Shown here one piece after another: positions 9,090-32,000 of a stretch of 32,000 nt of DNA; position 1 is the stretch's first letter, and each line of letters starts with the position of its first letter. Source of the stretch: Thermodesulfobacteriota bacterium (GTDB taxonomy: Bacteria > Desulfobacterota > WTBG01 > JAGOGO01); NCBI GenBank assembly GCA_026625185.1, contig CP113000.1, forward strand, positions 2,802,651-2,834,650, given 5' to 3'. Under the pieces are notes generated by a model. That model did not search any database, was not told the origin of the DNA, and saw nothing but the letters and a program-made list of their open reading frames with translations. Both the position numbers and the translations under genes were made by a program.

Positions 9090-9346
9090 TGAGTAACCTC
9101 ATGGATTTTTTTAATAATTTATATTACTAGAGTATTAAGATTAGTTCAGATTTTTCATATCATAAATTTTAGAAAAAATAAAAAAATATATTGACAAATC
9201 GAAATAGAATATATTATTTTTTAGCCCCCATATGGGGAATAAATATAGATTAAGGGCCAAACAATCTAATGCGTATGATGAGCGATAGAGGTGAGAACTG
9301 TGGTGGAAAATTGTGGATGTTTAATAATCAGCAAAGGAGGTGTGAA

Positions 9347-12697: not shown

Positions 12698-12815
12698 GGC
12701 TACTATCCGCAACCCTGCCTTTCTCGTTTGGTTTTTTTCACAAATCAAACTTGCATATCAATCATAACCAAAAGAAAAAATCAAGCCGAAATAGCAGACT
12801 CAAAAAAGACGATAG

Positions 12816-13058
12816 CTAAAGTGGGCAGATGCCTTGAATATCCAGGTTGCTTTCAATGAGAACCTTTTTTACTCTGGACTCCTCTTTGGTTTCAAAGCGG
12901 ACACAAATTCCGCAATCCGAGCTTAGGTGCCTGGGCACAGGAATAAGCTTGAAAGCCACATTTTCAGCTTTCAATAATTTCTCGGCCCGGAGCGCTCCGC
13001 TTACTGAATAAAAAAGCGCCACCCTATAATTCTTTTCCGGTTCTTCATTAAAGCTCAA
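12816..13058 (-). CDS. DUF3343 (putative Se/S carrier-like) protein
   Basis: 80 aa. YRVALFYSVSGALRAEKLLKAENVAFKLIPVPRHLSSDCGICVRF matches the DUF3343 pattern seen next to yedE/yedF genes. Confidence 0.8.
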   Translation of the reverse strand: MSFNEEPEKNYRVALFYSVSGALRAEKLLKAENVAFKLIPVPRHLSSDCGICVRFETKEESRVKKVLIESNLDIQGICPL

Positions 13059-13629
13059 TTACTTTACCCGCTCCCAACAATGTTGAGGCAATATCATACA
13101 TATTTGAAATCCGACCTATTGCCACCTTATCTTTTATCTCAAAATAACCCAAACAGGTTCCGCAGGCAAGAATATCAATTCCTTTTTCCCCAAGAACACG
13201 CAGATCTTCCAAAACCGGTGATGATTCGACTACCAGTTTAACCCCGGTGTTGAGAAAAATAATCTTCTCGGGAAGCGGGAAAATCTCTCCCAGCGTGTGC
13301 AGAAAGGAGCGCATCAGCAACTGTCCCAGCTCCTCACTGCCGCGGCCAAAGGCATCAGAGGCAATTAGAAAAACGGTCGAACCGGTTTTTTCCTCAGGCC
13401 GCACTGTTTCAGATTCGGCCCTTTCCAGGCTGAGCTGCAGATAAAATAACCCATCTTTCTCTTCGGTTTCAACCCGAAACCCTTTGCTTCTGGCCAAACG
13501 GGATACATTCTCCTTTGCTGCTTCATTATCAACAATGGTGGTGATCGCGTCGGATTCTCCTAAAGCCCGATTGGTCAAAACAACCGGTTGGGGGCATGAA
13601 AGCCCGCGGGCGTCAATAACTATCGCCAT
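13048..13629 (-). CDS. yedF: Selenium metabolism protein YedF, long form (TusA/SirA-like N-domain plus DsrE-like C-domain)
   Basis: 193 aa. N-terminal IDARGLSCPQPVV (TusA CPxP motif). The C-terminal half reads FLIASDAFGRGSEELG...ILACGTCL. Sits in selenium gene context. Confidence 0.8.
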   Translation of the reverse strand: MAIVIDARGLSCPQPVVLTNRALGESDAITTIVDNEAAKENVSRLARSKGFRVETEEKDGLFYLQLSLERAESETVRPEEKTGSTVFLIASDAFGRGSEELGQLLMRSFLHTLGEIFPLPEKIIFLNTGVKLVVESSPVLEDLRVLGEKGIDILACGTCLGYFEIKDKVAIGRISNMYDIASTLLGAGKVIEL

Positions 13630-13640
13630 ATAATCTCCTT

Positions 13641-14804
13641 TTATTTGGCCTTGGAAGCAATTTTTGCGATTGCTTCGAGAAATGTCTTGATATTGTCTTC
13701 GGTGGTGAAATACCCGGGACTTATCCGCACAGTTCCTAAAGGAAAAGTTCCCAGTGTCTTATGGGCCAGAGGAGCGCATTGAAGTCCAGGACGACACATA
13801 ATATTATAATCCTCATCCAATTGCAATGCCACCTCAGAGGAAGAAAGCCCGGCGATATTAAAAGAAACCACCGCCACTTGTTGGCGAGGATCCCCGCTTC
13901 CATAAAGGGTTACTTTGGGGATCGTCTGAATCTCTTCAATAATGCGTCTTGTTAAGTTTTCCTCTCTTGGGCGGAGATTAGCGATACCTTGAGAAAGAAT
14001 AAATTTAACTCCAGCTGCCAGTCCCGCTAACCCGACCGTGTTCGGTGTGCCGCTTTCGTATTTATCGGGAAGAAAACTCGGCTGGTGTTCTGATTCGGAC
14101 CGGCTTCCCGTGCCCCCCCGCATCAGAGGCTTAAGAACGTCTTCTACTCCTTTGGCGACACAAAGCCCGCCGGTTCCGGGAGGACCAAAAAGCAACTTAT
14201 GGCCGGAAAAAGCAAGTAAATCGATGTTCATCACCTTAATATCAATTGGAAAAGCCCCGGCGGTCTGAGCCGCATCCACGCAAAAAATCACATTGTGTCG
14301 CCGGGCAATAGCGCCGATTTCCGCCACCGGCACGAGCGTGCCCACAACATTGGAGGCATGATTCAGGATAATAAGTCGGGTCTTCGACTTAATGGTTTTT
14401 CCCACGTCTTGCGGATCAAGAAAGCCTTCCGCCGAGCAATTGACGGTGGTTATTTCAACCCCCTGGTCTTCCAGAGCACGAAGCGGCCGCATCACCGAGT
14501 TGTGTTCCATGGTGCTGGTTATAACATGATCTCCCGGCCGCAGGATGCCGCGTACCGTCAGATTCAATGCTTCGGTTGCGTTTTTTGTGAATATGACGCG
14601 CAGAGGATCGTCAAGATTAAAAAGCTGTGCGATGATTTCCCTCGCTTCGTAAACCACGCGGCCCGCCTCGATGGAAAGCCGATGTCCGGAGCGACCAGGA
14701 TTGGCCCCAATATGGCGCATAAAGTTTTCCATCGTCCGATAGACTTCTTCCGGCTTGGGCCAGGAGGTTGCTGCATTGTCCAAATAAATTAAGTTATTAT
14801 CCAT
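13641..14804 (-). CDS. Class-V aminotransferase: cysteine desulfurase / selenocysteine lyase family
   Basis: 387 aa. IYLDNAATSWP, TSTMEHNSV, the FSGHKLLFGPPGTGGL PLP-lysine motif and the active-site loop RGGTGSRSESEHQP. Confidence 0.85.
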   Translation of the reverse strand: MDNNLIYLDNAATSWPKPEEVYRTMENFMRHIGANPGRSGHRLSIEAGRVVYEAREIIAQLFNLDDPLRVIFTKNATEALNLTVRGILRPGDHVITSTMEHNSVMRPLRALEDQGVEITTVNCSAEGFLDPQDVGKTIKSKTRLIILNHASNVVGTLVPVAEIGAIARRHNVIFCVDAAQTAGAFPIDIKVMNIDLLAFSGHKLLFGPPGTGGLCVAKGVEDVLKPLMRGGTGSRSESEHQPSFLPDKYESGTPNTVGLAGLAAGVKFILSQGIANLRPREENLTRRIIEEIQTIPKVTLYGSGDPRQQVAVVSFNIAGLSSSEVALQLDEDYNIMCRPGLQCAPLAHKTLGTFPLGTVRISPGYFTTEDNIKTFLEAIAKIASKAK

Positions 14805-14848
14805 TTTTATTTCTTATAATATGTTAAACAAAGCCAGCCAAACGTGGA

Positions 14849-15607
14849 TCAAGAAACCAGTTGCCCCGCATAGAGAGCGGCGCCTAAAGCTCCGACAGTC
14901 TGCGGGCTATCGGGCACAGTCAGCGGAACTCTCATTACCTGTGCCAAAAGTTTACACATACACGGGTTATAAGCCACGCCGCCGGCAAAAATAAATCTCG
15001 GCTGTTGTCCTACCCGGCGCACCATCGCGCTTACACGATCAACAATGGCCTGGTGAATCCCCTGTGCCACGCAACGGCTGTCTTCTCCCCGGCCGGTTAG
15101 TGAGACCACTTCGGATTCGGCAAAGACCGCACACATACTCGAAAGCCGGACCGCTTTTCCTTCCGCATTCAGCGCGTGTTCACCCAATTCCTTGATATCT
15201 AAACCTAAGGCATTCGCCATATTTTCCAAAAAGCGGCCTGTCCCGGCGGCACAACGATCGTTCATCTCAAATCTTCCCACGCCCCCGTCTGATTTTACCA
15301 GAATAACTTTGCTGTCCTGTCCTCCGATGTCGAGCACTGTCCGAACATCAGGAAAAAAATGATGGGCGCCGATGGCATAGGCTTTTATTTCGGTGATGAC
15401 CTCATCCGCAAGTTTGCGTTCAACGACCAGATGTCGCCCATAGCCGGTGGCAACCAGCCGGTCATAGGAGCGACCGTTGATCAAACGCTGCGAATTTATG
15501 AAGGGATCGACCCCGGTATACGCAACTTCTTCCCGCGTAATTCGCTCCCCATCCCACTCCACCAAGGCAATCGTCCTTGAACCGATATCCAGTCCGGCAG
15601 TCAACAT
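14849..15607 (-). CDS. BadF/BadG/BcrA/BcrD-type ATPase; activase (archerase) of a 2-hydroxyacyl-CoA-dehydratase/DCCP-type reductase
   Basis: 252 aa. GLDIGSRTIALV (ASKHA phosphate-1), DIGGQDSKVI, NDRCAAGTGRFLE and SSMCAVFAESEV, which carry the two Cys that bridge the [4Fe-4S] cluster in HgdC-like activators. Confidence 0.85.
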   Translation of the reverse strand: MLTAGLDIGSRTIALVEWDGERITREEVAYTGVDPFINSQRLINGRSYDRLVATGYGRHLVVERKLADEVITEIKAYAIGAHHFFPDVRTVLDIGGQDSKVILVKSDGGVGRFEMNDRCAAGTGRFLENMANALGLDIKELGEHALNAEGKAVRLSSMCAVFAESEVVSLTGRGEDSRCVAQGIHQAIVDRVSAMVRRVGQQPRFIFAGGVAYNPCMCKLLAQVMRVPLTVPDSPQTVGALGAALYAGQLVS

Positions 15608-15661
15608 TCTATTTCTCCAGGTTTTCCATACCTGACAAACTTCTAAAAATTCAACAAACCG

Positions 15662-16819
15662 TTATATCATTTCCAGAAAAGCCTCAATCCGCACCCTCAT
15701 AGTTTCCCGATCAGCATCGGAAAAATCAGTTGTTAGGTGCAGGAAAGGTTTTTCAAGCTTGTTCTTGACCAAATCGGCAACCCAATATGACTCTATATTA
15801 TAGGTGTGACAGCCGTGCCAAGTCAAATCAACAACGCCGTCAACAGCAAAGTCATGAATCATCCTCTCCAGGAGTTGGATGCGTTTTTTATTAGGTGACA
15901 TCACCGAACACGGAATGCCGACCTGCTTTTCAGCCAACAATAAGATGGGATCGCGGCAATCGGTTTCATCAATGCGCAAATCCAAACTTTTGTAGCCGCC
16001 GCAGATCTCCATTGCGACCACCAAACCGCCATACTCTTCAACCAATGAAACCACCTTATCATCATTTTCACCCAACGGAGTTCCGGTTAACAATATCCGC
16101 GGTGTTTTTTCGTTGCCGACATGATAACCTTGCTGAGCCTTTTTTTTAATTTCTTCTGTTAACCTATCAATCAGGGCAACTCCCGACATTCGATCAATGC
16201 TGTATCCTGCCTGAGCAACAATCACCAGCAGGTCCTTACCGGAAAGCAGAGCCGGTTTATTCCGGTTGAGATCAAACAGTTCCTTTCGGGCGCGAGCTTC
16301 TTCGTTGGTCACATGAATCGCCTCACGCAATGCCTCATCGGTTATTTTAACTCCCAATTCTTTTTCAATCGCAGTTTTGAGCCTCCGCACCTCGCTTTTC
16401 CACAACGTAATTGACATAGGTAAATCCGGGATTTGAGGTAGGTTCATCACATGGATCGGCTTGATGCGCTGCAGTATCTCATACATTTTTTTTTTGCCGT
16501 CGCAGGTGGTTTCAGCGACGATCATATCTGAGGCATGAAAAAAAGGACAGGTATCGCTAACCGCCAAATCATACGATGATCTGATAATCGGGCAGAGATT
16601 AGGAGGCAAATCATTATCAGCGGCAAGGAATGGTTCTTTCTTGTTCCCACATAAAGGAACCGCGATAGCCCCGGCCGCAAGCGCCAATTCTACCGGGCTG
16701 TAGGCGCAGTAATGGCCGATTACCTTTTTGCCTTCTTTTTTGGCCGATAAAAGGGCCCCAATATTTTCATTTCGCGTTTCTGAAAGTGCTGAAAAAAGTT
16801 CAGACCGTAATTCAAGCAT
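15662..16819 (-). CDS. 2-hydroxyacyl-CoA dehydratase / BcrC-BadD / double-cubane-cluster-protein (DCCP)-like reductase component
   Basis: 385 aa. GHYCAYSPVELALAAGAIAVPLCG, NLCPIIRSSYD, AETTCDGKKKMYE and the conserved Cys spacing are typical of the HgdB/DCCP superfamily. It lies directly upstream of its cognate activase. Confidence 0.8.
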   Translation of the reverse strand: MLELRSELFSALSETRNENIGALLSAKKEGKKVIGHYCAYSPVELALAAGAIAVPLCGNKKEPFLAADNDLPPNLCPIIRSSYDLAVSDTCPFFHASDMIVAETTCDGKKKMYEILQRIKPIHVMNLPQIPDLPMSITLWKSEVRRLKTAIEKELGVKITDEALREAIHVTNEEARARKELFDLNRNKPALLSGKDLLVIVAQAGYSIDRMSGVALIDRLTEEIKKKAQQGYHVGNEKTPRILLTGTPLGENDDKVVSLVEEYGGLVVAMEICGGYKSLDLRIDETDCRDPILLLAEKQVGIPCSVMSPNKKRIQLLERMIHDFAVDGVVDLTWHGCHTYNIESYWVADLVKNKLEKPFLHLTTDFSDADRETMRVRIEAFLEMI

Positions 16820-16890
16820 GGTATTTCCTAATCAACTTCCTAAAATTTTTATCAATATGAATTTATAGAATATTTTTGTATAAATCACCA

Positions 16891-17109
16891 TTACTCTTTG
16901 TTAATGGTAAGGTGATATTCGTTCCCTTCGGTCTGAATCTGTTTCACCTTCCACCCTTTGCTCGCTACTGCGCGGGCTACATTTTCTTTGGCAGTATCAT
17001 TGTCAACCAAAACCACCATCTCTCCTTTTTCCAGTAACTCCATTCCCTTTAACGTCACCAGCACCGGCTGAGGACAGGAAAGTCCACGTGCATCAATTTT
17101 TTTTAACAT
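16891..17109 (-). CDS. TusA/SirA-family sulfur (selenium) carrier, short YedF-like
   Basis: 72 aa. KIDARGLSCPQPVLVT is the CPxP motif. It lies immediately downstream of yedE, as in the E. coli yedE-yedF pair. Confidence 0.85.
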   Translation of the reverse strand: MLKKIDARGLSCPQPVLVTLKGMELLEKGEMVVLVDNDTAKENVARAVASKGWKVKQIQTEGNEYHLTINKE

Positions 17110-17120
17110 GATATTTCTCC

Positions 17121-18215
17121 TTATGCGACCTTATTTCTCATAGTGCCACCAATGAAAAGACAAACAAAAATTCCGACAACAACCGCTGCAATACCATGCG
17201 GTCCAATTCCTTGAGGGGAACTGGCTAACCCAAAATTATGGGCAAAAGCCGCGCCAACAATCATCCCCAGAACAAAAATCGCCGCATCCCCATCTCCCTC
17301 TCCAGCCAGAAATAATTGCCTTCCGGGACAGCCACCGGCAAGAGCAAACGCGAGTCCCGCCAAAGCCATCCCGCTGAAGTTCCACAGACCCATGGTGTGG
17401 GCAATCGGTTGATTCTGGAAACCCGGATGAAATTGCCCAAGTATCATATTCATAATAAAGGCTGCCACAATAAGGGCAACAACCCCTGAAAAAAGATGGA
17501 GTTGCCGGAACAAAATAAGGTCCCGGAAAGCACCCATGGTACAGAACCGGCTTCGTTGGGCCAGAAAACCCACTGCCACCCCGGCAATCAAAGACATTAC
17601 CAGCGGAGCATGCATTGCGCCCGGCCCCTTTGCGCTGTAAAGAAGAACTCCGCTGCTCTCTTGCCCTTCAAGAGGAGGAAAAATTATCCGTAAAAATAAA
17701 AATCCCATCATGATCAGCGGCAAAATCCAACCCACCGGAGTAAGCGTCGGCTGAGAGCGCCCCAGGTTGTATCCGCCTCTGAAAAATAACGTCCCGATCC
17801 AAATGCCAAAAATCAGGCCGAGCAAGCCCAATATCGCGTTTCCATCCCCGCCGGCAAGCCGTAATAAAGTCCGCCAGGGGCATCCGAGAAAAACCAGCGC
17901 CCCGATCATGGCAAATACTCCAAGAACAAACCGCACAATGGGAGCGGAACCCGCACGGGCCCGAAATTCTTTAAAGAGGTAGGCTGCAAGCAAAGACCCC
18001 AAGACAAAACCAATGATCTCCGGTCGCATATATTGCACCACCGCTGCCCGATGAAGTCCTAAGGCCCCGGCAATATCCCGCTCAAAACAGGCAACGCATA
18101 TCCCCATATTACCTGGGTTGCCGAACTTTTGTAAAAGGGGCGCAAGGATTCCGATAACTGCCCCTACCCCAATGATTCCCCAGCGGCCAGCAAATATGTT
18201 TTTCAGGCCATTCAT
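17121..18215 (-). CDS. yedE: YedE/YeeE-family membrane protein (putative selenium/sulfur compound transporter)
   Basis: 364 aa, polytopic. GNMGICVACFERDIAG, RSRFCTMGAFRD and GGCPGRQL are conserved Cys-containing re-entrant motifs of the YedE/YeeE family. Confidence 0.85.
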   Translation of the reverse strand: MNGLKNIFAGRWGIIGVGAVIGILAPLLQKFGNPGNMGICVACFERDIAGALGLHRAAVVQYMRPEIIGFVLGSLLAAYLFKEFRARAGSAPIVRFVLGVFAMIGALVFLGCPWRTLLRLAGGDGNAILGLLGLIFGIWIGTLFFRGGYNLGRSQPTLTPVGWILPLIMMGFLFLRIIFPPLEGQESSGVLLYSAKGPGAMHAPLVMSLIAGVAVGFLAQRSRFCTMGAFRDLILFRQLHLFSGVVALIVAAFIMNMILGQFHPGFQNQPIAHTMGLWNFSGMALAGLAFALAGGCPGRQLFLAGEGDGDAAIFVLGMIVGAAFAHNFGLASSPQGIGPHGIAAVVVGIFVCLFIGGTMRNKVA

Positions 18216-18270: not shown

Positions 18271-19677
18271 CTAAAAACCCATTGCTGCCTGAAAGGTAAC
18301 GAGGTTTTGATCTTTTCCGCTGAATTCACCCTGAGGGCTATTAACTTCTTTCCGCTGATCGATGAAGGTCCAATCCAGGGTAAGTTTTGCATCATGGCCC
18401 TTAATTAAATAGTTCAGGTCTAAAGAAGTGAAGGCGGTGTCAGGCTTTTGGTCTACCGCCAGCCTTTCATAGCGAAGATAGGGTTGAATTCTCCCTGTCC
18501 CAATTTTGCAAGGTAAAAGATAGCCTCCCTGAATATAATAAATTTGAGCGTTATCTCCACTAATAAGCCGGCTATATTTAAGGGTCTGAGTCACGTTTTT
18601 TACATCAATAAAGGCGGACTCGACAGTTACTGCCCCTTGCCCAACAGGATGGTCGAAAAAGAGGTCGACTGTCCATCCGATATTATTTTGATCAAGTTTT
18701 TTACTTAAAACAAGGCCCTCTTGATAATCAAACCCAGCGCCAAGTGCCAAAACTTTTTTCGCACCGAGATAAGATCCCTGGTTAAACCAGGTCGTTTCCG
18801 CCTACAAAAGGTTAAGTGAGACTCTTCCAGAAAACCGGAGGTTATCGTTTGGATTGTCGGTATTACTTTCAACCCCCTCAGACATACCAAGTCGGTACTG
18901 AAGCAAACCTTTAAATAAATTTCCCCAGAGAACCATTCCATCATCCCGCCCCACTTTACTTGCATAAAAAATGCTTCCCCGTACTCCCCCCTGGTTAAAT
19001 GGAAGTTCGAGGGGCAGCAAAGTAAAAGTTGATGTGGTACCGAAACTTCTGGTAAAGGGGACGTACATCCTTCCCATTTGAATCTTAAATGACTCGTTCA
19101 AGTTATAGTAAATCCAAGCATCGCGAACCGCAATGCCGCTTCCCAGTCCTACAGATGAGTTATCCAGCCCATCCTGACCGATACGATCACCGGCGATATG
19201 GGCAAAAAATCCGATTTTGGGAGTAACTTCTCCTGATAGATAAAAATAGAACCTGCGTAGCATAAAATCATTAAGATTTTTAGTACCGCTCTTTTTCCCA
19301 TCTTCCATAAACTGATACCACGTCTGCAAGCGCAAACCGGCCTTTAGCTTGTGCTCTTCCATAAACCTGGCTACTCGCTCAAAAGAAAAATGCTGTTCAT
19401 CGACCTTAGTTTTTAGCTCACTAACAGTAGTTTTTAGCTCTTCGACTTCAGTTTGGGGGGACACAGTTTGTTTTTTCGTTTCTTTTTCTAAAACCATAAT
19501 CCTGTTTTTTAATATTTCCAACTCGGCATCTCTTCTTTGTTCGATCTCTTCTATCTTTTTCTTCAGCATTTCAATTTCTGCATCCTTTGACTGGGCGAAT
19601 ACCAGATTTGGGTGAAGAAAAATCAGCCCGGCGGTTAAAAACGTTAATGCTGTCATTGCTGCTAATCTTCTCATCAC
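18271..19677 (-). pseudogene. Porin (OprO/P-like, N-terminal coiled coil) interrupted by a single in-frame TAG at 18802-18804
   Basis: ORFs 18802-19677 and 18271-18750 are in the same frame (19677-18750 = 927, divisible by 3). Read-through gives ...RFSGRVSLNLL*AETTWFNQGSYLGAKKVLALGAGFDYQ... as continuous beta-strand sequence. Signal peptide MMRRLAAMTALTFLTAGLIFLHPNLVFA, and a C-terminal ...FQAAMGF. Confidence 0.65.
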
Positions 19678-26378: not shown

Positions 26379-28283
26379 TTAACCTTTATCGCGCAGAGGA
26401 TTTGTTTTGGCCCACAACAACAGAGTTGAGCTGAAAACCACCGTAATGCAACCAGCCTCCTGAAATATAACCGCCAAAACAGGGCTGAGCAACCCCAGGC
26501 TGCCTAACAAAAGTCCCACTGCATTGTAAATGATGGAAAAAAAGATATTTAATTTGATACGCCGCAGCACTTTTTTCGACATGTACACAAAATCAACAAC
26601 CCCCGACAAGTCATCATTCATCAAGGTAACGTTCGCAGTCTCAATGGCCGCATCTGTGCCCGCCGCCCCCATGGCAACGCCGACATCCGCCAAAGCCAGG
26701 GCCGGGGCGTCATTGATACCGTCCCCAATCATTCCCACAAGGTGTCCTTCCTCTTGCAGTTCCTTTACAACTTGTTGTTTCTGTGCCGGAAGAAGCTCTG
26801 CCTGGAAGTTGTCCACACCAATCTGTCCGGCAACCGATTGAGCTACTCGCTGATTGTCTCCGGTAAGCATTGTGATACTCTGAATGCCCATTGCTTTCAA
26901 AGAAGCAATGGCTTGGGAGGTCTCCGGGCGGATCTCGTCCGAAATACCAATCAAACCGATAACCTTCATGCTGTTTGTCACCAGAATGGCAGTTCTACCC
27001 TGCTCCGTCTGACCCAAAACAGTTCTCTCGATGTCTTCACCAAGAGATATGCCTTTACCTCGCAAAAACTCATCTTTGCCGACCAATATCTTTTTGTCAC
27101 CATAGACAGCACTCACCCCCATGCCGGCCTCACTATTGAATTCGTCTGGGTCCGGTATCTCAATACCACGTTTTTTAGAGATACCCATGACCGCTTTGGC
27201 CAAAGGATGCTCGGAGAATTTTTCGGCTATCGCCGCAAGACGCAGGACATGATTTTCTGATATAGTGCCAAAGCCGACCACCTCCTCTACTTTCGGTCTA
27301 CCGAAGGTAAATGTGCCCGTCTTATCAATCAGGAGCCTATTAAGCTTCCCGGCCAACTCCAGGAATACACCCCCCTTGACCAGTACACCTCTACGCGCCA
27401 AATTGGCGATGCCTGCTGTCACCGCTGTCGGAGTGGCAATAGCAAAAGCACAGGGGCAGGCTACAAGAAGGATAGACACTGCAACCCTGATGTCACCAGA
27501 GGTAAAATAGCCTATGACCGCTATCACCAGCACCGTAGGCAGAAACCATGTGGTAAAGCGGTCTGCGATGTTCTGGATAGGCGCTTTGGTATTTTGTGCT
27601 TCCTCTACCAGATGAACAATTTTCGCTAAGGTAGTATCCTCACCGGTTTTGTTTGTCCGAATTTCCAGAAAGCCCGTCTCATTTAATGTTCCGCTAAAAA
27701 CCTCGCTCCCTTTAAACTTTTCAACCGGCATCGACTCTCCGGTAATTGGGGCCTGGTTCACACTGCCTGCCCCCGCCACCACAATCCCATCAACGGGAAT
27801 GCGTTCCCCTGGTCTCACAATCACTACTTCACCAACCTGAACCTCACTTGCTAAAATAGTGACTTCCGCTCCTTCCCGGCGAATCACTGCCATTTTGGGA
27901 CTAAGGTCTAAGAGGTTTCTGAGGCTCCTGCGGGTCTTGTCCAGGGTATAAGATTCCAAGGCCCCAGCTACAGCCATGATGAACACGATGATAGCTGCTG
28001 CTCGAAACTCACCCACGGCAACAGTGGCTATCAGGGCTACGGTTACAAAAACATTGACCGTTATTTTTCGGTTATATATATCCTTAAAACCGCCAAGAAA
28101 TCGCAGGAACCCCCCAAACAGGGTAGCAACCAGCGCAAATCCCGAATTTAAAAAATACGGCCCAATCTGCCAATAAGCCAGCGCCCAGCTTGCCACAATA
28201 AGAATTCCCACGACCACAGGTACAATAGCCAAAACCGCTATTTCACGGTAATTGATCAGTTCTTCCGTTTCATCTTGATACAT
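26379..28283 (-). CDS. Heavy-metal translocating P1B-type ATPase without a recognisable N-terminal metal-binding domain
   Basis: TM CPC motif (LLVACPCAFAIATP), DKTGTFT, MLTGDN and GDGINDAPAL, with 4 TM helices before the actuator domain (8-TM P1B topology). Start placed at MYQDETEEL (28283, AAAGGGGA upstream). The ORF stays open to 28520, but that stretch is Arg/Lys-rich and looks non-protein-like. Confidence 0.85.
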   Translation of the reverse strand: MYQDETEELINYREIAVLAIVPVVVGILIVASWALAYWQIGPYFLNSGFALVATLFGGFLRFLGGFKDIYNRKITVNVFVTVALIATVAVGEFRAAAIIVFIMAVAGALESYTLDKTRRSLRNLLDLSPKMAVIRREGAEVTILASEVQVGEVVIVRPGERIPVDGIVVAGAGSVNQAPITGESMPVEKFKGSEVFSGTLNETGFLEIRTNKTGEDTTLAKIVHLVEEAQNTKAPIQNIADRFTTWFLPTVLVIAVIGYFTSGDIRVAVSILLVACPCAFAIATPTAVTAGIANLARRGVLVKGGVFLELAGKLNRLLIDKTGTFTFGRPKVEEVVGFGTISENHVLRLAAIAEKFSEHPLAKAVMGISKKRGIEIPDPDEFNSEAGMGVSAVYGDKKILVGKDEFLRGKGISLGEDIERTVLGQTEQGRTAILVTNSMKVIGLIGISDEIRPETSQAIASLKAMGIQSITMLTGDNQRVAQSVAGQIGVDNFQAELLPAQKQQVVKELQEEGHLVGMIGDGINDAPALALADVGVAMGAAGTDAAIETANVTLMNDDLSGVVDFVYMSKKVLRRIKLNIFFSIIYNAVGLLLGSLGLLSPVLAVIFQEAGCITVVFSSTLLLWAKTNPLRDKG

Positions 28284-28356
28284 GATGTAAAAATCCCCTT
28301 TAAGAGTGAATGGGGGCTTACGGCTTGACCCATCCGCAGTGCCCCGGTCAAAAACA

Positions 28357-28527
28357 CTATTTCTTCTCGCTCTTGTCACCATTCTTGTCATCAGCGACTG
28401 TTTTATCATCCTTTGTTGCAGGACCCCCGCAACCTTCTCCCGGGCCTCAAGAACATCCACCAGTTTTAGCCATAGATTCCATAATCGCCGACCAGAAGCC
28501 CTTTTTCTTTTTCTCTTCATTTTTCAT
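28357..28527 (-). CDS. Candidate small selenoprotein (56 aa with UGA read as Sec) or 26-aa leader peptide
   Basis: GAGGTGA (28539-28533) plus 5 nt leads to ATG 28527. Peptide: MKNEEKKKKGFWSAIMESMAKTGGCS-[TGA 28449-28447]-GPGEGCGGPATKDDKTVADDKNGDKSEKK-TAG. A hairpin follows 12 nt after the TGA. Confidence 0.45.
28415..28434 (-). promoter_or_regulatory. Candidate SECIS hairpin for the small ORF
   Basis: Minus strand GGUUGCGGG-GGU-CCUGCAAC: 8 bp including one G-U pair, with a GGU apical loop. It resembles the E. coli fdhF SECIS apex GGUUGCAGGUCUGCACC as I recall it. The spacing from the UGA is the same as in selD in this window. Confidence 0.45.
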
Positions 28528-28576
28528 CTTAATCACCTCTCTTCGTGGACATATAATGAAATTAAACTTTTTTCCT

Positions 28577-29365
28577 TTATGTTGTTGGCACCCCAAAATC
28601 TCTGATACCTATCCATTCTCTTGAAAGGAGTGCCATATTTTTTTCAAACTGCTCCAAATGAGTTTCAAGCGCTTTTGCTTCCTGATATACGTAGCGAGCC
28701 TCGTTGGCTAAGCCAGCATCCTTGGCCAATTTTTCAATCCGGCGGGTAAAACCTCCGAGAGGTGCAATCCGGTTTCTAAAATTGTGTGCGATTTCACCTA
28801 CAAAGACCTCATTCTTTTTTATAGATTCAATCATGTGCTCGACTAATTCCGCTCGTCCAACGGCTGCTCCAATCAATTCACCCACCACCTTCAAATAGTC
28901 GAAATCTTTAGAAGAAATAGGAGACCCTTCTTTACCCGAGTCAACAATTAATGCCCCAACTTTATTCTCTTCCTGAGTAACCGGATGTACATACCAAATC
29001 GGAATGATCGCCTTAATCTTGACCGCATCCGATAAAGTGTGTCGGTAACCCTCGGTTTGACGGATATCAGTCAAATTTACCGGTACTCGGTTTTTGACCA
29101 CCTCCCAGACAATGCTCTCCTTGCATACCGGAACTTTTTCTATCGGGCAATCATATTTACCCACCCAGCAGGTGAGCTTCAATTCGTCTCTTTCCATAAG
29201 GACACACCGCGCCCGTTTTCCTAACCTTTGGCTTAATTGATCGAGACAAGTTTTAATAAGATAATCACGATTCATACAGGTGCTCACCAGACGGGCGATT
29301 TCTATGAGATCCTGGTAACGTCTGGAAATATCCCCTTCTTTTCCCTTTGCCTTTTTAGTCCCCAT
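28577..29365 (-). CDS. GAF domain plus HisKA-like dimerisation/phosphoacceptor (DHp) protein lacking a catalytic HATPase domain
   Basis: Start at ATG 29365 after GGAGG plus 7 nt. The central region is GAF-like. The H-box VGEIAHNFRNRIAPLGGF sits near the C-terminus, and the protein ends about 55 aa later with no N/G1/F/G2 boxes. Confidence 0.7.
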   Translation of the reverse strand: MGTKKAKGKEGDISRRYQDLIEIARLVSTCMNRDYLIKTCLDQLSQRLGKRARCVLMERDELKLTCWVGKYDCPIEKVPVCKESIVWEVVKNRVPVNLTDIRQTEGYRHTLSDAVKIKAIIPIWYVHPVTQEENKVGALIVDSGKEGSPISSKDFDYLKVVGELIGAAVGRAELVEHMIESIKKNEVFVGEIAHNFRNRIAPLGGFTRRIEKLAKDAGLANEARYVYQEAKALETHLEQFEKNMALLSREWIGIRDFGVPTT

Positions 29366-29487
29366 CTCAGAACCTCCATCGTTCCTTGTTTTACTCAACA
29401 ATTTTCAGACATCGTAATGCCCTGGGCCAAGTCTCAATAAAATTCTCCATGCTAAAACGCTATGCTTTTAAAAGTGTTTTCCGTGTT

Positions 29488-30117
29488 TCAAAACGTAACG
29501 AGAAAATAGAACCCGGCAATCATCAAAACCGATCCTGAAACCCATCGGGTTGCGGCATCGGCGCCCTTGGCCGCGAGGCTGACTTTGCTCAGCGAAACGC
29601 CCAGCAAGACGGCTCCCAGCGGTATGCTGAAACCAATGGCAAACATGGCCAGCATTAATATCGCCCAAACGACTTTCCCTTGCAGAATCGCCGCTCCGAT
29701 AACGATAAATATGCCGGGATTACACGGGCAAGAACTGACGGCGACAATCCCGCCGAGCACAAGTCCGGCCAAGGCCGCTCCGAATTTTCCCACCCTATTC
29801 GTAATTCCTCCGAGCTTCCCGAAAGATAGTTTAAAGGGCAGAAGGCTCAGCGTGGCCAGCCCCAAAAAAACCGCCACGAGTCCGGCGAATACCTTCCAGT
29901 ACCGGCCCAAGCTGCTCTGGGCAATTTGCCCGACGAACCCGGCGATACCGCCAATGATCATCAGGGAGACAATCGTTCCCACGGTAAAAAACAACGCGGT
30001 CTTGAAAGCCGCCTTCCGATTGTCATTCGCCTGGGCGCCGGAATACCCGACCAGAATCCCCAACGCAGGGAGGGTGCAGCAAGCGCTCATGGCCGCGCTC
30101 ACAGCGCCAAGGAGCAA
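29488..30117 (-). CDS. CcdA/DsbD-like 6-TM membrane protein with vicinal CC and CPC motifs; 5' end probably frameshifted
   Basis: 209-aa ORF from TTG. TM1 carries SACCTLP and TM4 carries VSSCPCNPG. An SD-led ATG at 30185 encodes MLESITNSLQQVASHNP in another frame and would join LGLVFALLLGAV... if the C4 run at about 30133-30136 were C5. Confidence 0.7.
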   Translation of the reverse strand: MLLGAVSAAMSACCTLPALGILVGYSGAQANDNRKAAFKTALFFTVGTIVSLMIIGGIAGFVGQIAQSSLGRYWKVFAGLVAVFLGLATLSLLPFKLSFGKLGGITNRVGKFGAALAGLVLGGIVAVSSCPCNPGIFIVIGAAILQGKVVWAILMLAMFAIGFSIPLGAVLLGVSLSKVSLAAKGADAATRWVSGSVLMIAGFYFLVTF

Positions 30118-30200
30118 GGCGAATACAAGGCCCAGGGGTTGTGCGAGGCAACCTGTTGCAGGGAGTTGGTTATTGATTCAAGCATGAAACACCCCTTTTC

Positions 30201-31319
30201 TCAATTGCATCCGGATGATGGCGCGCAACTCGATGGTCCGCAGCCCCCGGCTCGTGATGTTGCCGTAAATGCCTGCAACAATTTCGATTCCGTAACGTCC
30301 CCGGTGACTGCCGCCATGCCTTTACCCTTGCTTGCGACGAGAATGGCAGGGGCCTGAACTTGAGTAGAGATCTTGGAGTAATCGGGGGAACTGACCGGCA
30401 AGGTATATATTCCAAGGTTGATCTTGTTGGTTTTTAAAGTTTTTTGTGCCGACAGAACGGCGTCTTTTGTCTGGTCCTTAACCGCCTCATCCTTTTCACG
30501 GGGAATGAAAATAAAAACAGCGTCTTGACTCAAAGCTACCTTGTTAAGGTCGCTGAGAGACTCCAGGTATTCCCCAATTTTGGGCACTGCCTTGGAATTT
30601 TTAAGCTCTACTTTCTCTATTTTTTTCTCCTTTTTATTCTCAATGGGCTTTTGATCGACAACTTTAGAGGTTTCTGTAATTTCATTTTTGACAGGCATCT
30701 CTGCTTTGTCGCCATTTAAAGGCTGGGTGGCGCTATCGGTCACTGGTTCAGGGGCCTTGGGTGCGACAGTAAAGCCGGATGTTTTTGCTGCGGCCAAATC
30801 GTTAGATGATTTCCCTTTTGTGACCGATGTCTTGAAGATTAGGATGCCGATGACTACCAATAACACGATAAGGCTGACTGCAACCTTGATTCCCTTGGCT
30901 TTCGGGGGGGCGTTGCAAGCGCACCCGGGTCCGCAGGAATTCATGCCGCTCTGTGGTTCGAGTGGAGATGGGGGGCTGTTAATGGGCGAATGCTCTGCGG
31001 TCACCACCTTGTCAATTCCTATAAATTGCAGAAGTTCACCCCTTAAGGGATAGCTCCCTCTGCTTACAATTACCCCATCCACCAAAATTAGGGGAAGACA
31101 TTTGTTGCCTTCTCGATTCAGAGCTTCCGCCACACGTTCCTCCCGGGCAAACTCGGCGGTATGTGAAGAGAGGTTGAATCGCTCTACCACCACGCCCTTT
31201 TTCCGCAACCAGTCCAGGTCACTGGAAAACCTCACCAAATCGGGATCAACTTTTGGTCCGCACACCACACTCGAACAGCACATCGGCGGGTCGTACACTT
31301 GCAGTTTGGTTTGTTGCAT
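30201..31319 (-). CDS. ArsD-domain fusion protein: ArsD metallochaperone-like N-domain, Cys-rich linker, TM helix, Trx-fold-like C-domain, Cys-rich tail
   Basis: Start ATG 31319 (AGGAG plus 6 nt). KLQVYDPPMCCSSVVCGPKVDPDLVRFSSDLDWLRKKGVVVERFNL...CLPLILVDG matches R773 ArsD, including Cys12/13/18. Then come CGPGCAC, the TM helix IKVAVSLIVLLVVIGILIF, and the tail GGCGPSSCAPSSGCN. Confidence 0.75.
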   Translation of the reverse strand: MQQTKLQVYDPPMCCSSVVCGPKVDPDLVRFSSDLDWLRKKGVVVERFNLSSHTAEFAREERVAEALNREGNKCLPLILVDGVIVSRGSYPLRGELLQFIGIDKVVTAEHSPINSPPSPLEPQSGMNSCGPGCACNAPPKAKGIKVAVSLIVLLVVIGILIFKTSVTKGKSSNDLAAAKTSGFTVAPKAPEPVTDSATQPLNGDKAEMPVKNEITETSKVVDQKPIENKKEKKIEKVELKNSKAVPKIGEYLESLSDLNKVALSQDAVFIFIPREKDEAVKDQTKDAVLSAQKTLKTNKINLGIYTLPVSSPDYSKISTQVQAPAILVASKGKGMAAVTGDVTESKLLQAFTATSRAGGCGPSSCAPSSGCN

Positions 31320-31340
31320 CACTTTCTCCTTTAAATTAGA

Positions 31341-31580
31341 TTAACCACAGCATTTGGAATTGCTGTCAGAACAGCAGGCGCCACTGTTTGATTGGGGCTG
31401 ATTGAGAACCAAGCCAACATGCTTCCTCATAGCAGTTAAGGTGCCTTTTTCAACCATATAGCCGACTTCAATTGCCACTTTTATTTCGTTTTCGTCAACC
31501 TTAAGTTCCCGCGCCTTGCCCAGGTGAACCGTCAGGCAGGGCTGACAATGAGTTCCAACCGAGACACCAATGGCGATCAA
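31341..31580 (-). CDS. Carboxymuconolactone decarboxylase / AhpD-like CxxC protein with a Cys-rich tail
   Basis: (L)IAIGVSVGTHCQPCLTVHLGKARELKVDENEIKVAIEVG is the AhpD-core CxxC motif. The tail is GACCSDSNSKCCG. Family similarity continues upstream (NLIDERIKEL), but TTG 31580 is the only canonical start. Confidence 0.7.
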   Translation of the reverse strand: MIAIGVSVGTHCQPCLTVHLGKARELKVDENEIKVAIEVGYMVEKGTLTAMRKHVGLVLNQPQSNSGACCSDSNSKCCG

Positions 31581-31647
31581 CTCCTTTATGCGCTCGTCGA
31601 TTAAATTGCTCCTTTCATTTTCTTGTTCGTAAGTCGATGATGATCGT

Positions 31648-31875
31648 TCATCCGCAACTACATCCGGGCCCGCAACCTCCCGACTCGCCTCCCGACTTAT
31701 TTCCCCTGCTCACCTTTGAACTGAGAATGCCGAATCCGCCCAGGACGACGCGCCGAATCGGCTCACCCGTGTCGGGATGTGTTGTCAACGCCTCGTCCTT
31801 CATGCTTTGCTGAATCTCATAGATCTTCGGCTTCTCTCCGGGATTTCCCGGAATCGTTTCGTAAACGTAAATCAT
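31648..31875 (-). CDS. FmdB-family-like small protein lacking both CxxC knuckles, with a GCGPGCSCG tail
   Basis: Start ATG 31875 after AAGGAGA plus 8 nt. MIYVYETIPGNPGEKPKIYEIQQSMKDEALTTHPDTGEPIRRVV parallels FmdB MPIYEYxCxxCGxxFExxQxMxDxxLxxCPxCGxxxxR with the Cys positions replaced. The tail is GGESGGCGPGCSCG. Confidence 0.55.
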   Translation of the reverse strand: MIYVYETIPGNPGEKPKIYEIQQSMKDEALTTHPDTGEPIRRVVLGGFGILSSKVSRGNKSGGESGGCGPGCSCG

Positions 31876-32000
31876 GGTGCCATTCTCCTTTTTTTGGCGT
31901 ATCTTCGTTCGTTTAGTACGTAAAAGCGGTCTGTCAAGGAGGCTGGGGAATTCCAGCACCGCGTCTGGTCGAACAGAATCGGCTAAGGCAATCGGATTTC

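Follow-up and report, generated by a model that had tools for sequence, protein, structure and literature searches.

This locus raises the question of which substrate a series of thiol-rich proteins would pass to a P1B-type ATPase, and whether these genes constitute a system of their own. The window, the 32,000-nucleotide stretch of DNA analysed here, contains seven co-directional ORFs on the minus strand (31875-26379) with gaps of approximately 17-90 nt, and the genes and their Cys-rich motifs were present as the initial annotation had claimed. That annotation had regarded the block as a free-standing system and stated that acr3 was missing. The latter is correct inside the window, but an Acr3 gene (TIGR00832, score 454 against a cut-off of 283) lies upstream in the same orientation, 3.3 kb past the edge of the window at base 32000. 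The block is thus not free-standing, and the operon reads Acr3, Trx, CcdA, an unknown gene, FmdB-like, AhpD-like, ArsD fusion, DsbD-like, GAF, peptide and ATPase. It forms the distal portion of an ars operon in a Thermodesulfobacteriota MAG, that of an uncultured, sulfate-reducer-like bacterium. Our favoured explanation is an extended arsenic-resistance operon which probably captures As(III) with thiol/selenol carriers and exports it in an ATP-driven step.

Six of the seven families, the GAF protein being the exception, recur in ars operons (ArsR, ArsC, Acr3, ArsM, ArsA) among uncultured anaerobes that represent about six phyla, and all loci found came from uncultured organisms. In a genome set of 57 loci, anchored on the thioredoxin-fold domain, 49 loci contained ArsA, ArsC, Acr3 or ArsM and 45 contained ArsR. 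ArsA was present in 15 of these loci and the ATPase in 14, but the two were never found together. An unbiased metagenome scan for the TM6 motif of the ATPase yielded 119 ATPase loci, 57 of them informative in that they had 4 kb or more of additional sequence; ars or module genes accompanied the pump in 54 of the informative loci, and ArsC, Acr3 or ArsM in 38. Only one of the 119 loci encoded ArsA. The complete seven-gene order did not recur, whereas the pair of fusion and DsbD-like genes, the AhpD-like, FmdB-like and peptide genes and the ATPase did so across phyla. The proposal of an undescribed operon type has to be modified: the thiol-rich metalloid-handling set is recurrent and no description of it was found, but it extends ars operons. 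The high GC content of the block, previously taken as a hint at horizontal acquisition, proved a weak indication, as other parts of the window reach 0.50-0.515. Transfer would be better argued from the cross-phylum identities, since the DsbD-like proteins share 70-83% and the ATPases 63-75%.

Profile and structure searches agreed with most of the families first proposed, namely a Cys-less FmdB-like core, an AhpD-like CxxC protein, an ArsD/TM/Trx-like fusion, a DsbD-like six-TM protein with CC and CPC, and a P1B-ATPase without N-terminal metal-binding domain. For the protein described as GAF-DHp, the GAF domain was recovered and the DHp part was not. The FmdB-like ORF (31648..31875, minus strand, 75 aa) combines a Cys-less zinc-ribbon-like core, which reached 14.5 bits with Zn_ribbon_8 and stayed under the cut-off of 34.4, with the C-terminal tail GGCGPGCSCG. 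The core was free of Cys in all 41 members of the family, whose consensus is MTTYVYETIP..YEIQQSM..HPETGEPIRRV...CGPGCxC. The gene is an optional accessory and occurs in the ars operons of loci L185, L186, L026/L188 and L101. Its CGPGCxC motif is shared with the juxtamembrane segment of the ArsD fusion and with the type-2 peptides described below. The AhpD/CMD-domain protein (31341..31580, minus strand; PF02627, 29 against 23; TIGR00778, 30.8 against 27.8) exhibits a CxxC (HCQPC) and the tail GACCSDSNSKCCG; its start codon is putative, the frame being open upstream as far as 31661. Homologues were detected in 16 of the 57 genome loci and 21 of the 119 metagenome loci. The GAF-domain protein (28577..29401, minus strand; GAF_2, 31.6 against 28.6) contains an H-box-like motif, EIAHNFRNRI, in its C-terminal helical region, which matched no HisKA or HATPase model in the profile search. 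With homologues in L184 and L182 only, it is probably a lineage-specific regulator outside the conserved set.

The ArsD fusion protein (30201..31322, minus strand; NF033727, 112.9 against 90) begins with an ArsD metallochaperone domain bearing an MCCSSVVC triad; this is followed by CGPGCAC, a single TM helix, a linker rich in Pro, Ala and Lys, a domain of thioredoxin fold and the tail GGCGPSSCAPSSGCN. Its CGPxCxC motif was invariant in the family alignments. The C-terminal domain was modelled as a thioredoxin fold (AlphaFold2, pLDDT 78.9), and its top Foldseek matches in the PDB were thioredoxins and PDI b domains. The neighbouring DsbD/CcdA-superfamily protein (29488..30185, minus strand) has six TM helices, the first containing CC and the fourth CPC; this CPC is peculiar to the lineage of the window and replaced by LPC in 53 of 55 relatives. 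The family possesses three conserved membrane-embedded Cys as against two in CcdA. Genes for the Trx-fold membrane protein and the DsbD-like protein were adjacent in 51 of the 57 genome loci, with the latter directly downstream. A fusion without TM helix exists in L026 and P0058, so the Trx-fold domain is not obligatorily extracytoplasmic, and the DsbD-like gene of the window is frameshifted at its 5' end; both observations weigh against arsenic export. The frameshift, seen in one assembly only, is a 2-bp insertion relative to L184 near 30142, soon after the ancestral ATG at 30185, and leaves an ORF of 209 aa from TTG 30117 to 29488.

Known membrane proteins offer two comparisons for this pair. 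ArsG, the aromatic aminoarsenical efflux permease (NF040495), is likewise a six-TM DsbD-fold protein of ars operons with Cys in TM1 and TM4, and the DsbD-like variant of L048 matched its model weakly (E = 7e-12; score 45 against a cut-off of 200), while the window-type proteins gave no match. In contrast to ArsG, DsbD and CcdA, the DsbD-like protein has an extra vicinal Cys in TM1 and is obligatorily paired with the Cys-tailed Trx-fold membrane protein. In MerT/MerP, two vicinal Cys are likewise located in the first TM helix and a partner presents thiols on the outer face, and in both cases the metal would cross the membrane by thiol ligand exchange. No sequence relationship to MerT was detected, however; there are six TM helices here instead of three, and the context is one of arsenic, not of mercury.

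Proteins of the DsbD superfamily are classically carriers of electrons and not of metals, which is a point against the export of arsenic. The DsbD-like, Trx-fold and AhpD-like proteins and the neighbouring Trx/CcdA pair could be electron-transfer components that keep ArsC, ArsM or exported thiols reduced and neither bind nor move arsenic, the ATPase being a separate matter. We regard such a redox function as unlikely, although several findings agree with it: homologues of the DsbD-like protein matched DsbD_2 (9 of 21) and DsbD_TM (5 of 21), despite the lack of any Pfam match for the window copy; the AhpD-like protein contains CxxC; Trx and a canonical CcdA were located near 20 of the 57 genome loci; and a lipoyl/Lpd/OsmC cluster upstream of the block was seen again in L184, L094, L148 and L158. 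Such a cluster recalls the Lpd-lipoamide-AhpD relay of mycobacteria. The absence of a DsbD-like neighbour from the TM-less fusions would also fit a DsbD-like protein serving an external domain. Yet the Trx-fold domain has no CxxC, the additional conserved Cys of the DsbD-like protein is superfluous for electron transfer, and its partner contains ArsD, which carries As(III), as a fused domain along with a tri-thiol motif at the membrane. Moreover, ArsG demonstrates the same fold in an arsenical permease (PMC9144182).

The same machinery might also serve methylarsenite, a thioarsenical or antimonite, and thus protect anaerobes that make or meet MAs(III). ArsM adjoins many genome loci and 23 of the 119 metagenome loci, ArsP is encoded near L185 and L188, and organoarsenicals are the export substrates of ArsG, to which the DsbD-like protein is closer than to any other named protein; the hosts all inhabit anoxic environments, in which MAs(III) would be stable. 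We nevertheless judge another substrate to be quite improbable. The tri-Cys sites (ArsD triad, CGPGCxC, CPC plus Cys) are a better match for As(III), which is three-coordinate, than for MAs(III), which is two-coordinate, and ArsM is missing from many loci. The window's own 21-kb neighbourhood is among these; ArsR, ArsC and ArsA were not found there either, an observation which also speaks against arsenic export as such.

The P1B-type ATPase (26379..28283, minus strand, 634 aa; TIGR01525, 575.9 against 346) has eight predicted TM helices. It had been called as an ORF of 713 aa, which is too long: the actual start is ATG 28283. In L184, a relative with 88% identity, a stop codon interrupts the frame of the extension. 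The motifs are LLVACPCAFAIATP in TM4, NIFFSIIYN in TM5 and FQEAGCITVVFSSTLLLW in TM6. CPC, YN and QExGC..SS were invariant across 13-14 homologues, none of which has a metal-binding domain. The protein defines a P1B clade that lacks this domain and is marked by the TM4 CPC and an invariant TM6 Cys; its closest sister clade carries APC and QEAGT instead, and the Cys peptide was absent at the one sister-clade locus examined. Among solved structures, the Cu(I) pump AfCopA (3J09/7R0G) was the best match with 407 bits. As in the CopZ-CopA system (P1B-1), the TM4 CPC, TM5 YN and TM6 SS are kept and a gene for a small soluble carrier lies beside the pump. The carrier is, however, an unstructured-looking, Lys- and Cys-rich peptide of 55 aa instead of a ferredoxin-fold HMA protein, and alignments with AfCopA and ATP7B showed that Val takes the place of the TM6 Met ligand found in Cu(I) pumps and that a Cys lies three residues before it, one helical turn off. 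The context is arsenic, not copper.

P1B-ATPases are known for cations and not for a neutral or thiol-bound metalloid, and both ArsR-family regulators and P1B pumps are in use for Cd, Zn, Cu and Pb as well; these observations run counter to an arsenic pump. A precedent is TtArsX, a P1B-2 ATPase of Thermus thermophilus HB27, which confers arsenic resistance and also pumps Cd (PMC5960188). Both pumps are tied to arsenic tolerance, and an ArsR/SmtB-family regulator adjoins the ATPase in most related loci, as in Thermus. TtArsX differs in possessing an HMA domain at its N-terminus and the Zn/Cd signature (K in TM5, DxG in TM6), whereas the present clade has no metal-binding domain, keeps YN and SS, carries the TM6 Cys, resides within ars operons and is accompanied by a free Cys peptide. 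The ATPase and its peptide could alternatively be a pump for soft cations, i.e. Cu(I), Ag(I), Cd(II), Hg(II) or Pb(II), that travels with ars genes on multi-metal islands. The pump scored above the curated thresholds of the Cd-type as well as the Cu-type NCBIfam subfamilies, and some metagenome loci consist of nothing more than ArsR, peptide and ATPase, lacking any As-specific neighbour, which again detracts from arsenic as substrate. Still, a soft-cation pump is very unlikely in view of the lost Met ligand, the near exclusion of ArsA, the ars association in 95% of the informative loci of this motif-defined clade and the lack of mer, cop or czc genes among the annotated neighbours.

Upstream of the ATPase, a small peptide of 56 codons (28357..28527, minus strand) contains an in-frame TGA at 28447-28449 and reads MKNEEKKKKGFWSAIMESMAKTGGCS-TGA-GPGEGCGGP... 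Its layout comprises a Lys-rich N-terminus, an amphipathic helix, GGCS-U-GPGEGCGG and a charged tail. A Lys- and Cys-rich peptide of about 55 aa preceded approximately 61 of 63 evaluable ATPase genes; the family includes 48 distinct type-1 peptides and further type-2 peptides, and matched no NCBIfam or Pfam model. The TGA aligns with a Cys of GGCCCGPGE(S/T)CGGP in L047, L049 and L071, a replacement confined to the lineage of the window. A SECIS-like hairpin, GUUGCGGG-GGU-CCUGCAAC (28415..28433, minus strand), begins 13 nt past the UGA; when the 40 nt following the UGA are folded, it emerges as the minimum free energy structure (-11.4 kcal/mol), and it is identical in L184 and resembles the hairpin UUAGGUCC-GGG-GGACCUGG after the UGA of SelD in the window. 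The 91-nt fold of the region had no significant z-score. Conservation in L184, the Cys alignment, the SelD-like hairpin and the presence of SelD (itself with UGA), YedE and YedF suggest that the TGA is read as selenocysteine. Decay of the locus, with a nonsense mutation in the peptide and a frameshifted DsbD-like pseudogene, is scarcely credible: the 2-bp insertion, the single base change from TGC/TGT to TGA and the missing Rfam match of the hairpin would allow it, but the TGA and the intact downstream frame are kept in L184, a relative from another sample diverged by 12% at the protein level, the hairpin and the selenium genes argue otherwise, and the rest of the DsbD-like ORF is undamaged, retains all six TM helices and is 96% identical to L184. 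Sec in place of Cys in a metal-ligand motif, with Cys homologues predominant, is also known from metal-resistance proteins in a review of prokaryotic selenoproteomes, and the peptide family is not among the families seen in its tables (PMC13188914).

We thus return to arsenic capture and export. The conserved proteins show clusters of three or four Cys, or Sec, the ligand set preferred by trivalent arsenic, and from the context we infer that arsenic is the metalloid. As(III), possibly Sb(III) or methylarsenite, would be captured in the cytoplasm by the ArsD domain, the CGPGCxC-type tails and the 56-residue peptide, and passed by thiol ligand exchange to a transmembrane site of the ATPase formed by the TM4 CPC and the invariant TM6 Cys. 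Because the pump itself lacks a metal-binding domain, the free peptide may act as a detachable one, and the metalloid would be exported upon ATP hydrolysis. The Trx-fold protein and its DsbD-like partner would form a second module, which translocates the metalloid or receives it on the outer face like ArsG or MerT; alternatively, the external Cys tail may be kept reduced. The two modules are separable, since the Trx-fold/DsbD-like pair also occurs alongside ArsA.

The R773-type arsRDABC system (ArsD to ArsA to ArsB/Acr3) shares a Cys12/13/18-type triad in the ArsD domain, Acr3 in the same cluster and a chaperone delivering the metalloid to an ATP-driven export step, and the same accessory genes of related loci lie amid ArsR, ArsC, ArsM and ArsA. 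It differs in that the present operon has no ArsA, has an ArsD that is anchored in the membrane and fused to a Trx-fold domain, employs a P-type pump instead of a soluble ATPase on a secondary carrier and adds several Cys-rich families. ArsD together with this ATPase and without ArsA, as in the window, L184 and six metagenome loci, fits a proposed hand-off to the P-type pump. Five or six Cys-rich families for which no description was found, including an all-Cys pump and a Sec peptide, thus recur in the ars operons of anaerobes, in which the unit of ATPase and peptide may represent a functional alternative to ArsA and ArsD.

Seven open reading frames follow one another in the same direction on the minus strand from 31875 to 26379, separated by spacers of about 17-90 nt, as the initial annotation had described. 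They encode, in order, an FmdB-like protein, an AhpD-like protein, an ArsD fusion, a DsbD-like protein with six TM helices, a GAF protein, a small peptide and a P1B-ATPase. Arsenic detoxification is among the best-studied resistance systems, and the block is very probably an extension of an arsenic-resistance operon. A gene for the arsenite permease Acr3 (TIGR00832, 454 vs 283) lies 3.3 kb upstream of the block in the same orientation. The initial statement that acr3 is missing and that the P-type ATPase is the only pump was an artefact of the window boundary, because this gene lies upstream of the window edge. ArsR, ArsC, ArsM and ArsA were not detected by tblastn within 21 kb at the window's own locus (L001), so that the reported presence of ArsD without arsA held; ArsR, ArsC and ArsM occur in most related loci. 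In the closest relative's locus (L184), which is 88% identical and originates from another sample, the operon is shorter and comprises Acr3, a remnant of the thioredoxin, the AhpD-like (CMD) protein, the ArsD fusion, the DsbD-like protein, the GAF protein, the peptide and the ATPase. GC content was rejected as uninformative about horizontal transfer, and the hint of horizontal acquisition that had been drawn from it was dropped.

The contig of the Thermodesulfobacteriota MAG GCA_029216075.1 that carries the window has an identical ArsD fusion, with the window edge at locus position 9320. Between Acr3 and the block, a thioredoxin, a canonical CcdA and a 432-aa protein are encoded in the same orientation. 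The gene for the 432-aa protein (window 31934-32000 for its 3' end, L001 8088-9386) is located between those for CcdA and the FmdB-like protein, and its product matched no NCBIfam or Pfam model. A fragment 73% identical to this protein adjoins the ATPase in another locus (L174, 4439-4912). Farther upstream, a lipoyl-protein cluster on the same strand (L001 240-5067, directly upstream of Acr3) encodes a GcvH-like protein, two DGC-domain proteins, an OsmC-like peroxiredoxin, dihydrolipoyl dehydrogenase, a radical-SAM enzyme and LplA. At least four further loci (L184, L094, L148, L158) likewise have parts of this cluster beside the ATPase and the ars genes. It could be a source of reductant for the AhpD-like protein, or it could be tied to the affinity of arsenite for dihydrolipoyl groups.

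The recurrence of the block was assessed from two sides. An alignment of the ArsD fusion retrieved 57 genome loci, all from MAGs of uncultured organisms, with hosts among Planctomycetota, Verrucomicrobiota (including Lentisphaeria and Kiritimatiellae), Chloroflexota, Omnitrophota, Nitrospirota and Desulfobacterota-type lineages. The tblastn queries run against these loci were the proteins of the window plus ars proteins encoded at one of the 57. A DsbD-like gene was located at most 700 nt downstream of the gene for the protein with a TM helix and the C-terminal thioredoxin-fold domain (Trx-fold protein), on the same strand, in 51 of the 57 loci, a near-obligate pairing; two of the six exceptions were contig ends. 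As counted with single tblastn queries on contigs of unequal length, ArsA, ArsC, Acr3 or ArsM was present in 49/57 loci, ArsR in 45/57 and an ArsD domain in 19/57, mostly in loci with ArsA. By the same counts ArsA was found in 15 loci and the ATPase clade in 14, never together (0/57). The two are thus mutually exclusive, the related loci with ArsA being devoid of the P-type ATPase. The neighbourhood of the ArsD fusion thus recurs as far as the pairing with the DsbD-like gene and the ars genes are concerned; the GAF gene, with homologues only in L184 and in one further locus (L182), does not belong to the conserved set.

For the second approach, the TM6 motif FQExGC..VV.SSTLL was back-translated to a DNA pattern and run on metagenome contigs, again from uncultured organisms, a choice that does not favour loci with the other genes. 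At least 120 stretches matched; of the 120 listed, 119 encode an ATPase homologue 59-96% identical to that of the window. Among the 57 metagenome loci that offered 4 kb or more of additional sequence, 54 contained any ars or module gene, 38 ArsC, Acr3 or ArsM, 34 the Trx-fold protein and 30 the DsbD-like protein, a tight linkage to ars genes. ArsA appeared in one of the 119 metagenome ATPase loci listed, as fragments, and some of the 119 are minimal units of ArsR, peptide and ATPase. No relative of the DsbD-like protein was present among the plasmids of PLSDB. One locus, L185 (6971-7207, 11153-12665, 14476-17812), is a large ars island with uncharacterised neighbours, including a DUF2180 protein between Acr3 and ArsA and family-less proteins of 280 and 225 aa after the DsbD-like gene; a second unit in this island comprises ArsR, ArsP, Thioredoxin_3, Trx, CcdA and AhpC.

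The P1B-ATPase (28283-26379, minus strand; TIGR01525, 575.9 vs 346.25) contains the DKTGT phosphorylation motif (IDKTGTF) and the Cys-Pro motif of TM4 (ACPCAF). The public gene call of 713 aa, which starts at 28520, is too long at its 5' end: the initial 79 codons run over the peptide ORF in a different frame, and this extension (28283-28520) shows no conservation and is interrupted by a stop codon in L184. The small-peptide gene is hidden by this public annotation. Most P1B subfamilies have an N-terminal HMA or His-rich metal-binding domain. The first TM helix of the window ATPase begins about 12 residues in, and no HMA domain was matched. All 13 homologues with their N-terminus on the contig likewise had no N-terminal domain and entered the first TM helix after about 10-20 residues, confirming the earlier description of an ATPase devoid of an HMA or His-rich N-terminal domain. 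The TM4 motif LLVACPCAFAIATP was invariant in 14 homologues, as were NIFFSxxYN in TM5 and FQE[AI]GCxTVVxSSTLLLW in TM6 in the 13 homologues covering them.

The best solved relatives of the ATPase are Cu(I) pumps (AfCopA, 407 bits), and ZntA was the weakest match among the P1B structures. In alignment with AfCopA and ATP7B, the YN and SS residues coincide, the Met of MxxSS is replaced by Val and a Cys appears three residues earlier, about one helical turn. The protein thus shares CPC, YN and SS with the P1B-1 pumps for Cu(I)/Ag(I), but not their signature MxxSS. Pumps of type P1B-2 for Zn, Cd and Pb are characterised by CPC, a Lys in TM5 and DxG in TM6 (PMC5960188). The window ATPase differs from this group, including TtArsX, in having NIFFSIIYN in TM5 and FQEAGCITVVFSS in TM6. 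CPC and the TM6 Cys together amount to three thiols in the membrane, which may form one site. The nearest sister proteins in a representative library at 50% identity (59% and 50% identical) bear APC and QEAGT and no TM6 Cys; as this library merges the tri-Cys clade with the APC/QEAGT sister group, clade size is not obtainable from it. The sister-clade proteins P0162 (L191 1326-3269) and P0163 are also without an N-terminal domain. At the one sister locus read, L191, no Cys peptide was encoded upstream and the ArsR-family neighbour had no CVC motif. The ELCVC motif of ArsR, although present, was rejected as an arsenic marker because it does not separate As from Cd sensors.

The small peptide is encoded by a 56-codon ORF with an in-frame TGA (28527-28357, minus strand), and no NCBIfam or Pfam model matched it. 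A small ORF was located upstream of about 61 of the 63 evaluable ATPase genes, which makes this pairing near-obligate as well. Type 1 peptides (48 distinct instances) read M..KKKKG(L/F)xAxIWESMTKTGGCCGxGxxCCGP and continue into a charged tail; type 2 peptides read ..KESIAKSNDGCGPGCGCH.. and bear the same CGPGCxC motif as the tails of the FmdB-like proteins. Type 2 peptides are encoded upstream of ATPases about 62-68% identical to that of the window (L025, L068, L100, L116, L118, L122, L129, L152, L161, L165, L171, L179, L183).

The window peptide, ..ESMAKTGGCS-TGA-GPGEGCGGP..., had been put forward as a candidate selenopeptide. In three other loci (L047, L049, L071), the position of its TGA is taken by the third Cys of GGCCCGPGE(S/T)CGGP. 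In L184 the TGA is kept, and the downstream frame is intact despite two amino-acid changes after it. The fold of the 40 nt following the UGA contains a hairpin of 8 bp with a GGU loop, which begins 13 nt after the UGA and is identical in L184. The SelD gene of the window also has an in-frame TGA (GAG-U-ASK), and the hairpin downstream of it likewise has 8 bp, with GGG as its loop and CGGGGGNCCUG as the shared core. Folding 91 nt around the peptide TGA gave a structure no stabler than shuffles (z = 0.08), so that it is the resemblance to SelD and L184 on which the case for the hairpin depends. Rfam yielded no SECIS or other RNA family, either in a gathering-threshold scan of the window or in a permissive scan around the peptide. 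Selenocysteine at this TGA is well supported, if not proven. A selenium-utilisation cluster occupies 11648-18215 on the minus strand, with SelD (11648-12697; TIGR00476, 366.7 bits; TGA at 12644-12646), YedF (13048-13629), a cysteine-desulfurase/Sec-lyase-like gene (13641-14804) and YedE (17121-18215). An acyl-CoA dehydratase activase/HGD-D pair sits inside this cluster, and ExtI-like porin fragments lie at 18271-19677.

The ArsD fusion (31322-30201, minus strand; NF033727, 112.9 vs 90; PF06953, 128.7 vs 27) is a protein of 373 aa in which an ArsD domain and a CGPGCAC motif precede a single TM helix; beyond it, a linker of low complexity leads to a conserved domain of about 110 aa and then the tail GGCGPSSCAPSSGCN. 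An exact-sequence look-up found the ATG-started form on record (P0001), but not the GTG-started form. In ArsD of R773, the triad Cys12/Cys13/Cys18 binds As(III). The triad is present in the window protein as DPPMCCSSVVCGP (MCCSSVVC); of the 14 rows with an ArsD domain in the alignment of Trx-fold proteins, 13 have it and P0089 does not. Members of the ArsD metallochaperone family are usually free soluble proteins of about 120 aa with an ArsA partner in the operon, whereas the window protein is fused to a TM helix and a second domain and has no ArsA within 21 kb. In the ATPase loci among the 57 genome loci, the Trx-fold protein usually begins right at the CGPGCxC motif.

The C-terminal domain was matched by no NCBIfam or Pfam model. 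An AlphaFold2 model from 113 sequences (pLDDT 78.9) predicted the order beta-alpha-beta-alpha-beta-beta-alpha, with thioredoxins and non-catalytic PDI b domains as best PDB matches (E about 2e-4, TM 0.5-0.6). The possibility that it is a diverged second ArsD was rejected, as hhalign returned only a 10-column match of Cys motifs at a probability of 30%. No CxxC occurs in the domain; the conserved cysteines are those of the disordered tail (GGCGPSGCGPSxxC) and, just ahead of the TM helix, those of an invariant CGPxCxC. Since ArsD is cytoplasmic, the forms with one TM helix would place the Trx-fold domain outside the cell. A TM-less fusion of ArsD and the Trx-fold domain (P0058, P0056) occurs in Omnitrophota-type loci (L026 9995-10738, L188 7001-7744), with neither the CGPGCxC motif nor a DsbD-like neighbour; its operon also encodes TauE, Usp, a methyltransferase and, in separate genes, three proteins of 72 aa.

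The DsbD-like protein (30185/30117-29488, minus strand) contains CC in TM1 and CPC in TM4, as first noted, although CPC is peculiar to the window lineage. The window copy and that of L184 had no Pfam DsbD/CcdA match (PF02683, PF13386), and no NCBIfam or Pfam model covers the window-type protein. Nine of 21 homologues matched DsbD_2 and five of 21 DsbD_TM (best E = 1.7e-14), and family-level comparison assigns the protein to the DsbD/CcdA superfamily. C36 and C154, invariant in the alignment of DsbD-like proteins, correspond to the TM1 and TM4 cysteines of CcdA. The extra Cys in TM1 forms CC, or CxxC in Chloroflexota, there with CC in TM4. Across phyla the DsbD-like protein is 65-83% identical and its Trx-fold partner only 35-50%, which points to strong constraint and horizontal spread. 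ArsG is an arsenical efflux permease of the same fold (PMC9144182); its model NF040495 gave 45.2 bits for a variant in L048, against a cut-off of 200, and no match for window-type proteins. In the Chloroflexota/Dehalococcoidia loci L052-L063 the DsbD-like protein is about 35% identical to the window type; CxxC replaces CC in its TM1 and CC replaces LPC in its TM4, and ArsD is a separate gene adjoining ArsA. In the window, the DsbD-like gene carries a 2-bp (CA) insertion relative to L184 at about 30140-30185, after codon 14 of the ancestral ATG (30185), which leaves the first 14 codons out of frame with the rest. Either the frameshift is real, with translation resuming from TTG 30117, or the assembly is wrong here; the two assemblies with the window sequence are identical over 21 kb and thus give no independent confirmation of the frameshift.

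The FmdB-like protein (31875-31648, minus strand) has 75 aa, a core without Cys and the tail GGCGPGCSCG. The scores for the FmdB zinc ribbon models (TIGR02605 / PF09723) were low, with 14.5 vs 34.4 for the window protein and 15.6 vs 31.3 for a homologue in L026. The knuckle positions were without Cys in 25 of 25 aligned members, and in the whole family (n=41) the zinc-ribbon-like core is Cys-less and nearly all members carry a CGPGCxC-type tail, which extends the initial observation of a Cys-less protein to the family. Where the context was readable (L185, L186, L026/L188, L101), these genes were located in ars operons; the exception, L187, is at a contig end. The CGPGCxC tri-thiol motif is common to the FmdB-like tails, the fusion protein and the type 2 peptides.

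The AhpD-like protein (31580-31341, minus strand; PF02627, 29 vs 23; TIGR00778, 30.8 vs 27.8) contains HCQPC and ends in GACCSDSNSKCCG. It was found in 16/57 genome loci and in 21 of the 119 metagenome loci listed, and NCBIfam includes an ArsM/AhpD fusion selenoprotein. Its frame is open for 27 codons upstream of the presumed TTG start (31580-31661; ..ERSNLIDERIKEL..), a stretch that matches the N-terminus of homologues (MDERTKEL in L026) and contains no ATG, GTG or TTG. The GAF protein is encoded at 29401-28577 on the minus strand.

Taken with the family memberships and conserved motifs, the ars context makes export of As(III), or of a closely related metalloid, a somewhat probable function of the ATPase. 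As(III) would be bound by tri-thiol carriers, namely the ArsD triad, the CGPGCxC tails and the CC..CC or CSU..C of the peptide, would reach, through ligand exchange, the tri-Cys site in the pump lacking a metal-binding domain and would be exported with ATP. The unit of ATPase and peptide may stand in for ArsA and ArsD. The DsbD-like/Trx-fold pair may be a separate module serving either pump type, as a thiol-lined translocator or acceptor or as a supply of reductant for the external tail. These specific relay steps are rather doubtful. Tentatively, a widespread clade of P-type ATPases would pump As(III) via an all-cysteine TM site, each pump receiving its load from a free peptide of about 55 residues, rich in Cys (with Sec here), in the role of a metal-binding domain that can detach. 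A second route for arsenic across the membrane, a thiol relay, would be provided by a DsbD-fold protein that has three membrane-embedded Cys and by its Cys-tailed Trx-fold partner. Such an anaerobe system would parallel ArsA/ArsD and be built on the reusable CGPGCxC tri-thiol tag.

The closest known systems are the arsRDABC/Acr3 operons, CopZ-CopA pairs, ArsG, MerT/MerP, CcdA with thioredoxin-like partners and TtArsX, a P1B-2 pump that has an HMA domain (PMC5960188). CcdA and Trx have been reported in ars operons (Castillo and Saier 2010). Besides that report and mentions of TtArsX and ArsG, the incompletely covered literature held no account of the clade or module, nor a description of the tri-Cys ATPase clade, the peptide family, the Cys-less FmdB-like family or the ArsD/TM/Trx-fold fusion, and the view that the combination is undescribed was upheld to that extent.

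In anoxic sediments, groundwater and bioreactors, ars operons are accompanied by five or six gene families without assigned function. Should the ATPase clade pump arsenite, the known substrates of P1B-ATPases would include a metalloid besides cations, and the use of a free mini-peptide rather than a fused HMA domain would be a new solution for metal delivery. The markers TM6 QExGC, peptide and CGPGCxC would then annotate arsenic cycling in metagenomes of arsenic-affected aquifers. The Sec variant offers a natural test of whether a selenol improves metalloid hand-off, and the DsbD-like/Trx-fold pair could show the recruitment of an electron-transfer fold for metalloid transport.
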